Shown piece after piece: positions 48,073-50,252 of a stretch of DNA of 64,000 bases. The notes under the pieces are model-generated. The model worked only from the letters and a program-made list of their open reading frames with translations. It searched no databases and had not been told where the DNA came from. This DNA is from Escherichia phage vB_EcoM_WFbE185: sequence record MK373778.1, one strand, 5' to 3'. Both the position numbers and the translations under genes were made by a program. How positions within the stretch are numbered: position 1 is the first letter of the stretch; each line of letters starts with the position of its first letter.

Positions 48073-48099
48073 AAAAACGAAGAAAGGGGCCGAAGCCCC
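48073..48099 (-). terminator. intrinsic terminator after hoc
   Basis: ggggccgaagcccc then T-rich tract on minus strand. Confidence 0.65.
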
Positions 48100-48105
48100 T
48101 TACGA

Positions 48106-49524
48106 TTATGGATATGTATAGATGATACCAGTTTCCAAAGCAGTTTTATGGATGACGTATCCATTACGTGATTCTTGAACATCAACTTCTGGATAGTCTT
48201 TCATCATCTTCTGAAGAGTGTAACGATGCAGGTAGTATTTACTATCTGCATCTTCAGTTTTCCAATCTTTACCTTCTTCAGTCATTTTTTGTATTTCATC
48301 CATAACCCACCAACCGCACCAGATGTAAGCTGAAGTACGATGTGGAAGAGGATGAACATAAGGTAATTCACCTTCTGGTTCTGGAGCAACTTTATCGGTT
48401 ACCTGAACTTGTCCTTCTGCTGTAATAGTTTTGCTATCATAATCAGTAGCAGTAACGACGGCAGTCACTTCAATAGTTTGACTTCCAATAGATGAGGTAT
48501 CAACGGTATATACATTAGTTGACCCTTCTACAGGAGAAGAATCTTTCTTCCATGAATAAGCAATTTGTGCTTCTTCTGGTGCACCAGTAACATTAGCTGT
48601 AAATGTAGCCGAAGCATCTTGTTGAACATTAATAGAAGGAGGAGTCAATGTAACCTGTGGATTCATTGTCTTCTTATTAACCGTTAATGATACTTCATTC
48701 GAAGTAACTTCCTTTGCATCATAATCTGTCGCAGTTACTTGGGCTACACATTTAATTCTTTTTACTCCACTTGTAGTTGGAGTATAGCTAAATGTAGAGT
48801 TAGTTTCTCCACCAATCTGTGAATCATCTACATACCACTGATACGTAGCAGACGCTCCAACCGGTTGAGAAGCTAAGGCGGCAGTAAATTGAACTGGGGT
48901 TCCAATTACTCCGGCTGAAGGACTATTGGGAGTTACTGCCAACGTAGTTGTCTGCGTCTTTTTATTAACAGTCAGTGACACTTCATTAGAAGTAACGCTT
49001 AGTGCGTCATAATCTGTTGCGGTTACTTGAGCCACACACTTAATTCTTTTTACCCCGCTTTCGGCAGGAGTGTAATTGAATGTAGCGTTAGTTGCTTCGC
49101 CAACAGGAGAATCATCTACATACCATTGATAAGTAGCGTTTGCGCCTGATGGCTGCGAAGCTAAAGCGGCAGTAAATTCAATAGCTGTTCCGATTACTCC
49201 AGCGTCAGGGCTATTAGGAGTTACAGCTAAGGTAGTCGTTTGTGTCTTATTTTGAACTGTGATAGTTGTAGAAGCTTCTGCTGTTTCAGCTTCAGCTTCT
49301 GGAACTGTATTTGTTGCAACTACTTTAATAGACTTTTGACCTGCAGGTCCTTTTAACACATAATCAAAAGTTGCTTCAGCTCCATCTTGCGAAACATCAT
49401 CTACAGTCCAAGCATATGTAATAGTTCCACCTCCAGTTTCACCACTGGGAGTAGCAGTAAACTGCTGAGTCTGATCTATAACTCCAGTAGGTGTTTTAGG
49501 AGTTATATCAACTGTAAAAGCCAT
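48106..49524 (-). CDS. hoc: Hoc outer capsid decoration protein, four Ig-like domains
   Basis: 472 aa; Ig-like repeats plus C-terminal capsid-binding region; synteny hoc-inh. Confidence 0.9.
   Translation of the reverse strand: MAFTVDITPKTPTGVIDQTQQFTATPSGETGGGTITYAWTVDDVSQDGAEATFDYVLKGPAGQKSIKVVATNTVPEAEAETAEASTTITVQNKTQTTTLAVTPNSPDAGVIGTAIEFTAALASQPSGANATYQWYVDDSPVGEATNATFNYTPAESGVKRIKCVAQVTATDYDALSVTSNEVSLTVNKKTQTTTLAVTPNSPSAGVIGTPVQFTAALASQPVGASATYQWYVDDSQIGGETNSTFSYTPTTSGVKRIKCVAQVTATDYDAKEVTSNEVSLTVNKKTMNPQVTLTPPSINVQQDASATFTANVTGAPEEAQIAYSWKKDSSPVEGSTNVYTVDTSSIGSQTIEVTAVVTATDYDSKTITAEGQVQVTDKVAPEPEGELPYVHPLPHRTSAYIWCGWWVMDEIQKMTEEGKDWKTEDADSKYYLHRYTLQKMMKDYPEVDVQESRNGYVIHKTALETGIIYTYP
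48670..49245 (-). repeat. tandem in-frame duplication (2 x 288 bp) inside hoc
   Basis: two consecutive 96-aa units about 85 percent identical. Confidence 0.85.
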
Positions 49525-49533
49525 AAGTTATCC

Positions 49534-50202
49534 TTATTTTAATGTTACGAAAGAAGAATTACGAGTTTCACGAATTAGAACTGATCCATCGCGATTAATA
49601 TAATAAATTAAGCTAAATAATGTTTGGTGAGCAGAAGCGTGCACAAAACTGGTTGGGCGAGATTTCCAATCTGGGGTTTCGTCTATCCATTGATAAATCC
49701 ACCAAGGAACAGTAACATATCCTGGGCCTTTGCCTAATTTAATGAGTGTAGGACTAAAATTTTCAGGCAGAACAAATTTTACTTCTTTATTTACCTCTGG
49801 CTCAGGCTCTTTTTCAGATTCAACAACCTGAGTAATTGCTTCTTCGAATTTATCATGGTCGAATTCTTTTTCTTGTTCGACAACTTCTAATACTTCAACT
49901 TGTTCTGTTGGAGAATCAAACAACAGAATAGCTTCTTCTTTAACTTCTTCGTTGGTGAAATTAACACCGTCCACATCATCTGCGGCAGTAATTAAATCGG
50001 TGATAGATAATCCATCAGTTTCAGGTAATGGTTCATCAGCCAGTGCGTTAAGAGCTTCTTCGATATCAATAACAATATTATCGAATGATTTTGTTTTCTT
50101 AACACTAATGCCAAATTGTTCCGCATATTCAAACAGTTTAGCTTTGGCTTCCTTTTTATCAGAAAGAGCACGTAACTCTTCAATATAGTCTTTATCGATC
50201 AT
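49534..50202 (-). CDS. inh: inhibitor of prohead protease
   Basis: 222 aa, synteny. Confidence 0.8.
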   Translation of the reverse strand: MIDKDYIEELRALSDKKEAKAKLFEYAEQFGISVKKTKSFDNIVIDIEEALNALADEPLPETDGLSITDLITAADDVDGVNFTNEEVKEEAILLFDSPTEQVEVLEVVEQEKEFDHDKFEEAITQVVESEKEPEPEVNKEVKFVLPENFSPTLIKLGKGPGYVTVPWWIYQWIDETPDWKSRPTSFVHASAHQTLFSLIYYINRDGSVLIRETRNSSFVTLK

Positions 50203-50215
50203 GATATTTCCTCAT

Positions 50216-50223
50216 TATAAATA
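50216..50223 (+). promoter_or_regulatory. late promoter TATAAATA for uvsW
   Basis: exact octamer 30 nt upstream of uvsW ATG. Confidence 0.65.
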
Positions 50224-50252
50224 TAACTATATTTATTACATGGTAATTTGAC

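Follow-up and report, generated by a model that had tools for sequence, protein, structure and literature searches.

The Hoc protein encoded by Escherichia phage vB_EcoM_WFbE185 is a T4-type Hoc with the layout D1-D2(A)-D2(B)-D3-capsid-binding domain, in which the second immunoglobulin (Ig)-like domain (D2) is present as two copies, A and B. Their divergence identifies these copies as old paralogues under purifying selection, and the orthologues that each of them has in other phages indicate that the two-copy arrangement was inherited or exchanged and is not new to WFbE185. Taken as a whole, an account that combines a T4-type Hoc, old D2 paralogues, recurrent recombinational change in copy number and exchange between genera is, in our judgment, probable. 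T4 nanoparticle vaccines use Hoc as their standard display platform, and the adherence of phages to mucus has Hoc as its model protein. The presence of four or five Ig-like domains in many natural T4-like phages, in a number that flips among near-identical genomes, matters for the choice of therapeutic phages and for comparisons of Hoc adhesion or antigenicity. In terms of annotation the case is routine, as this very protein has been deposited along with hundreds of close relatives and variable Ig-domain number has been published; the addition made here is modest, namely evidence of the great age of the repeat and of single-copy alleles, that of T4 probably among them, that look like recurrent recombinational deletions. 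All coordinates below are positions in the window, i.e. the whole stretch of 64,000 nt of sequence record MK373778.1 that was analyzed.

The hoc product (QBQ77693.1 of phage vB_EcoM_WFbE185, an exact protein match that is already public) was compared over its 472 aa with T4 Hoc (PDB 5vf3_Z; E=8e-219). The alignment fell into two blocks, query residues 1-109 with T4 1-109 and residues 189-472 with T4 93-376, the latter ungapped. One 96-aa unit is therefore left without a separate T4 partner, which bears out the claim, made in an earlier note on this DNA, of a Hoc of 472 aa versus about 376 in T4. The four Ig-like domains followed by a C-terminal capsid-binding region that the note had proposed, versus three such domains in T4, were likewise recovered by Pfam, by the T4 alignment and by an AlphaFold2 model. 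Pfam matches corresponded to PKD, Ig_2, Ig_3 and I-set, with PKD/Ig models on both repeat units and on D3. The AlphaFold2 model (mean pLDDT 82.6) consisted of beta-sandwiches at residues 1-91, 94-187, 190-283 and 286-376 (pLDDT around 90), with a helical C-terminal domain of low model confidence after the fourth sandwich. When the model was compared with the PDB using Foldseek, the best matches were multi-Ig proteins (adhesins, Dscam, Sidekick, complement; E around 1e-13) and no Hoc entry appeared among the top 50, a result that supports the predicted Ig-string architecture and says nothing on family membership. The protein combines a T4-like C-terminal domain, nearly invariant at residues 382-472 among 33 aligned Hoc proteins, with an N-terminal Ig-like string, a gene position next to inh and 24.3 and an acidic pI, as found in Hoc proteins. 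T4 Hoc (376 aa; PDB 5VF3) has the same genomic position and is also acidic; pI and net charge at pH 7 are 4.47 and -25 for WFbE185 Hoc, and 4.74 and -14 for T4 Hoc. An acidic fibre with a pI of about 4-5 is given as characteristic of Hoc by Fokine et al., 2023 (PMC10385173).

The gene order rnlB-24.2-24.3-hoc-inh-uvsW is the same as in T4 and RB69, and the place of hoc between inh and 24.3/24.2/rnlB agrees with the annotation of mar007P3 as well. Only 9 nt separate the stop codon of inh from the hoc ATG, which is preceded by an AAGGA ribosome-binding site, a spacing that makes co-transcription of inh and hoc likely. Ahead of inh and hoc the minus strand has no exact copy of the T4 late-promoter motif TATAAATA, but only a version with one mismatch, AATAAATA, at 50237-50230. 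In the whole 64-kb window the exact core occurs 19 times versus 8.6 expected, with most copies in front of the head genes, at 36.7 to 47.5 kb of the plus strand. Past the end of hoc there is a strong terminator-like hairpin (Table 1), and a terminator is annotated at the corresponding position of phage G2469.

Table 1. Features of the hoc region of WFbE185 (positions in the window) and A-to-B switches in single-copy D2 units of other phages (positions in the unit).
Feature	Position	Strand	Remarks
hoc CDS	48106..49524	-	472 aa + stop; stop codon 48106-48108; ORF list, T4 Hoc match
inh (prohead protease inhibitor)	49534..50202	-	Directly upstream of hoc
Terminator-like GC hairpin (AAGGGGCTTCGGCCCCTT) and T-run	48074..48101	-	4 nt past hoc stop; pattern scan
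Ig-like domain 1 (residues 1-93)	49246..49524	-	Aligns to T4 Hoc 1-93; beta-sandwich, pLDDT ~90; E29 and G33 present
Domain 2 copy A (residues 94-189)	48958..49245	-	Unit extra relative to T4
Domain 2 copy B (residues 190-285)	48670..48957	-	Closest to the single domain 2 of T4
Ig-like domain 3 (residues 286-381)	48382..48669	-	Aligns to T4 Hoc 190-285; Pfam Ig_3, I-set at 289-373
C-terminal capsid-binding domain (residues 382-472)	48109..48381	-	Aligns to T4 286-376
A-to-B switch, AV116	nt about 9-15 of unit		
A-to-B switch, G2469 and JS09	nt 21-30 of unit		
A-to-B switch, IMG L015	nt about 42-54 of unit		
A-to-B switch, IMG L016	nt about 64-81 of unit		
A-to-B switch, pSe_SNUABM_01	nt about 150-170 of unit		
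A-to-B switch, ChristianSchoenbein	nt 216-225 of unit		Slightly earlier in teqhad
A-to-B switch, JK38-like	nt 258-267 of unit		

The repeat itself corresponds to residues 94-285, which are encoded by 48670-49245 exactly. The limits given in the earlier note for the two units and for their DNA were thus correct to the base, and Tandem Repeats Finder agreed with them, reporting a repeat at 48668-49248 (period 288, 2.0 copies, 76% matches, no indels, score 684). The units are identical at 80 of 96 residues (83%), close to the 85% that had been estimated although slightly lower, and at 219 of 288 bases (76%); a BLASTP comparison of copy A with copy B gave E=3e-58, a similarity well outside that expected by chance. 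Copy B shares 91% of its DNA and 94% of its amino acids with T4 D2, versus 80% and 85% for copy A. T4 Hoc has one D2, whose DNA is itself a mosaic of A and B; the WFbE185 protein has one D2 more.

This arrangement is common. There were 658 phage records with a match, and among 60 of them that were sampled systematically 23 carried a two-copy gene (1419-1425 bp), 29 a one-copy gene (1117-1134 bp) and 8 a partial or other form, which puts the two-copy share at around 38%. The comparison of Hoc lengths in related phages that the earlier note had suggested returned forms of 376, 472 and 568 aa, and among the top 120 protein clusters these lengths accounted for 80, 29 and 7 clusters and correspond to one, two and three D2 units, respectively. 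The cluster at 90% that contains WFbE185 Hoc has 167 members, RB30 Hoc among them. Two-copy genes are found in Tequatrovirus (RB27, ime09, Sf23, teqskov) as well as in Mosigvirus (moskry, F31, vB_EQ1), while G2469 and mar007P3, Mosigvirus phages 98% identical to the WFbE185 stretch over 20 kb, have one copy, so copy number varies among near-identical Mosigvirus genomes. The 472-aa Hoc proteins of RB30, RB27, ime09, Sf23, teqskov, moskry and others consist of the same five domains, with A and B units that keep to their positions, and show 87-100% protein identity, differing from that of WFbE185 only by point changes and small A/B mosaic patches; in the moskry record a repeat_region is annotated within hoc. 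The 568-aa proteins (UGKSEcP1, UGKSEcP2 and metagenomic relatives) belong to the same family and have the same kind of D2 unit, but three of them. The third D2 unit of UGKSEcP1 hoc (L004:1501-3207) has the diagnostic-site pattern of the second unit of ime09 (L047), which suggests, from these sites, a third recurrent D2 unit type in the population. In Yersinia phage PST (L006:1501-2920) and Shigella phage SHFML-11 the hoc match spans 1420 nt and not 1419, and the PST gene is annotated as a truncated CDS of 930 nt; this 1-nt indel in a two-copy hoc could be a genuine frameshift or an error of sequencing. An explicit description of a 472-aa Hoc with two D2 units was not found in the literature searched, including that on RB69/RB49 and RB30 Hoc, and variable Ig-domain number in Hoc is described only in general terms in the text of Fokine et al., 2023 (PMC10385173). 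WFbE185 Hoc is therefore a widespread, already deposited variant of a well-known family.

The presence of the two-copy layout in both genera is best explained by transfer of hoc, judging from how identity changes along the region. The genome belongs to Mosigvirus, in the mar005P1 group, with around 98% identity to several such phages over 20 kb. However, hoc and the last ~150 nt of inh (48106-49680) are 88-98% identical in 150-nt bins to the Tequatrovirus phages T4, teqskov and UGKSEcP1, whereas identity to the same phages drops to 57-84% in the flanking uvsW, in most of inh, and in 24.3/24.2 and rnlB. This Mosigvirus therefore carries a T4-type, not an RB69-type, hoc allele. Homing by SegE with co-conversion was considered as the cause of the hoc identity and was not retained, given the divergence of inh, the gene that separates hoc from the SegE site. 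As for that site, the inh-uvsW intergenic region of WFbE185 (50203-50252) is only 50 nt long and lacks segE, while segE is located there in T4 and in Yersinia phage PST, and the near-identical Mosigvirus OZ035759 has at this position an ORF for a 260-aa SegE-like GIY-YIG/NUMOD3 protein (L007:42-824, minus strand). Homing of SegE into the inh-uvsW site in RB30 has been published (PMC2330249).

With regard to the direction of change, recurrent deletion in descendants of a two-copy ancestor is the most likely origin of the 376-aa form, including that of T4, as suggested by the distribution of A- and B-type bases. Single-copy D2 units were painted according to the bases at which A and B differ; a scan of IMG/VR for further hoc loci gave 21 loci, few of them T4-type, for which reason individual GenBank hoc genes were used. 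The direction of change is judged from the polarity of chimeras in only 21 single-copy and 9 two-copy DNA sequences. Single-copy units were mostly chimeras with an A-type 5' part and a B-type 3' part and a crossover at a variable position: the 5'-most diagnostic site had the base of the first unit in 19 of the 21, the 3'-most site that of the second unit in 20 of the 21, and clean A-to-B switches fell in about seven different intervals (Table 1). In T4, most of D2 is of the B type, while its 5' end and a patch near nt 244-249 are of the A type. An A 5'/B 3' polarity with varied junctions is what unequal crossing-over within a two-copy gene predicts, and argues for deletion. Complex mosaics or B-type starts in the single-copy units of HY01, PhAPEC2, Shf125875 and LF82-41 indicate that equal recombination between alleles, or gene conversion, is at work too and blurs the signal.

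In the mechanism we propose, one D2 would be lost repeatedly through unequal homologous recombination of two units that are 76% identical, leaving chimeric single-copy alleles such as that of G2469 and probably that of T4, while the reciprocal event would occasionally add a unit and give rise to three-copy genes. The D2 block varies between one, two and three copies across Tequatrovirus and Mosigvirus, and whole hoc alleles are also swapped between the two genera. A bolder proposal, which at present we regard as rather doubtful, is that the D2 block works as a recombination "accordion" that generates one-, two- and three-copy fibres together with new chimeric D2 surfaces, the three-Ig Hoc of T4 being derived and not ancestral. 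If true, populations could rapidly vary the length, charge and glycan-binding valency of the fibre in mucosal environments.

Fusion of two alleles is the least improbable of the alternatives, even if we consider it unlikely. According to it, A- and B-type D2 domains diverged in separate single-copy lineages and were joined by one unequal (microhomology) crossover in a mixed infection, with the single-copy chimeras resulting mainly from ordinary equal crossovers between A-type and B-type genes. Such crossovers predict both polarities, and mosaics that switch from a B-type 5' part to A do exist (Shf125875, HY01), but the clean single-switch chimeras are all of the A 5'/B 3' kind, at each of the intervals where they were found. 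Many second units begin with a B-type 5' end, which beside D1 in single-copy genes is rare. The movement of hoc alleles between genera is demonstrable, and nearly all-A (IMG L017, PYPS2T) as well as all-B (AV116, JS09) single-copy units occur, as fusion would need; yet D1, D3 and the C-terminal domain are no more diverged in genes with A-type single units, and no donor lineage of the required depth was seen, the D2a domain of RB69 being far more distant.

In the earlier note the repeat had been interpreted as a recent in-frame duplication, of which the tandem, in-frame repetition of domain 2 stands and the recent date does not. An origin in the lineage of WFbE185 itself, from a three-Ig, T4-like Hoc, would fit two adjacent, in-frame units of equal length with such protein identity, and the single unit of this kind in T4, but it is very improbable considering the synonymous divergence and the orthologous copies shared with other phages, which refute it. 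Identity between A and B at codon positions 1, 2 and 3 was 83, 86 and 50 of 96, respectively. By the Nei-Gojobori method there were 45 synonymous and 24 non-synonymous differences, with dN 0.12, dN/dS 0.087 and a dS of 1.38 that, derived from 96 codons with a pS of 0.63 +/- about 0.06, is imprecise. For comparison, dS was 0.28 between copy B and the single D2 of T4, and 0.27-0.38 between the remaining Hoc domains and those of T4. The A-B value exceeded anything that 29 T4-type hoc genes show in D1, D3 or the C-terminal domain (maximum pairwise dS 0.59, 0.55 and 0.43, respectively), a comparison of flanks with D2 whose value as a measure of age is weakened by the frequent decoupling of D2 from its flanks by recombination. 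In nine two-copy genes the dS between first and second units had a median of 1.12 within a gene and of 1.05 between genes, while first units differed from each other by 0.82 at most and second units by 0.60 at most. Gene conversion keeping the copies alike was rejected on these data, since distances within and between genes were equal and there was no sign of homogenisation.

The orthologues of each unit are found at the same position in other phages. In moskry, teqskov and OZ035759, the first unit shares 97-99% of its DNA with copy A and the second unit 94-98% with copy B; such orthologues thus exist in other genera, and the same architecture is present in roughly 250 phage records, plus RB30 and RB27. 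Neither the synonymous near-identity nor the absence of the arrangement from relatives that a recent tandem duplication would entail was found. Near-saturated synonymous divergence together with position-specific orthologues points instead to paralogues of considerable age. That a single domain 2 was mis-assembled into two, an error to which tandem repeats are prone, is hardly credible, since 69 of the 288 bases are different in the two copies, with 17 nt as the longest identical run, the reading frame is unbroken and the same two-unit arrangement is present in at least nine independent genomes and, more broadly, in many separately sequenced phages.

Equally implausible is the import of the extra domain from the RB69-type Hoc native to Mosigvirus. 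The Hoc protein of RB69, the type Mosigvirus (471 aa; L009:12613-14028), also has four Ig-like domains and an almost identical C-terminal domain, and one known Hoc, P0112, is a hybrid of the T4 and RB69 types that has five Ig-like domains, but the identity matrix refutes this origin: copies A and B share 52-53% of their amino acids with RB69 D2a (52% for copy A) and 39% with RB69 D2b, yet 83% with each other, while D2a and D2b, the middle domains of RB69 Hoc, are 40% identical. A and B are therefore co-orthologues (in-paralogues) of one ancestral D2. These identities place the A/B split after the separation of the T4-type and RB69-type lineages and indicate that the four-domain layout of RB69 arose independently, D2b not being orthologous to A or B. 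The P0112 hybrid is 567 aa long and consists of T4-type D1-D2 followed by RB69-type D2a-D2b-D3.

Other Hoc proteins share with that of WFbE185 the conserved capsid anchor and a variable Ig-like string. The homologue in Serratia phage Muldoon, a distant one, has 10 Ig domains in 1174 aa (PMC10385173, which also cites a crystal structure of RB49 Hoc), and in PNJ-9 Hoc D3 is absent, a different domain loss (PMC11853027). Unlike these two cases, the variation described here affects the copy number of one domain among close relatives. According to PMC10385173, Hoc homologues have one to ten Ig-like domains, and T4 Hoc is present as one molecule per gp23 hexamer, to which it is attached via its C-terminal domain, and forms an acidic fibre of around 180 Å. 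The near-identical C-terminal domain of WFbE185 Hoc is predicted to bind the centre of the gp23 hexamer as a monomer and, by the same analogy, the protein would be dispensable for growth, with the Ig-like domains projecting as an acidic fibre. The additional D2 should lengthen this fibre by one bead of around 4-5 nm and offer a second D2 surface, including the S-L-T motif. A longer and more charged fibre with doubled D2 surface and glycan-binding motifs is plausible by analogy with T4, and the altered adhesion or antigenicity that the earlier note had ascribed to the extra domain would be a reasonable expectation.

Several residues of WFbE185 Hoc coincide with reported binding determinants. 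S183/L184/T185 in D2 of PNJ-9 binds MUC2 and is reported to be essential for it (PMC11853027), E29/G33 are mucin/glycan determinants in PNJ-6 (cited in PMC11853027), and D246 in D3 of T4 is a glycan/mucin-binding determinant (PMC9271167). WFbE185 Hoc has all of these, namely E29, G33, SLT at both 183-185 and 279-281, and D342 as the counterpart of T4 D246; their presence does not by itself demonstrate mucin or glycan binding. The differences between copies A and B are mostly located in or beside predicted loops.
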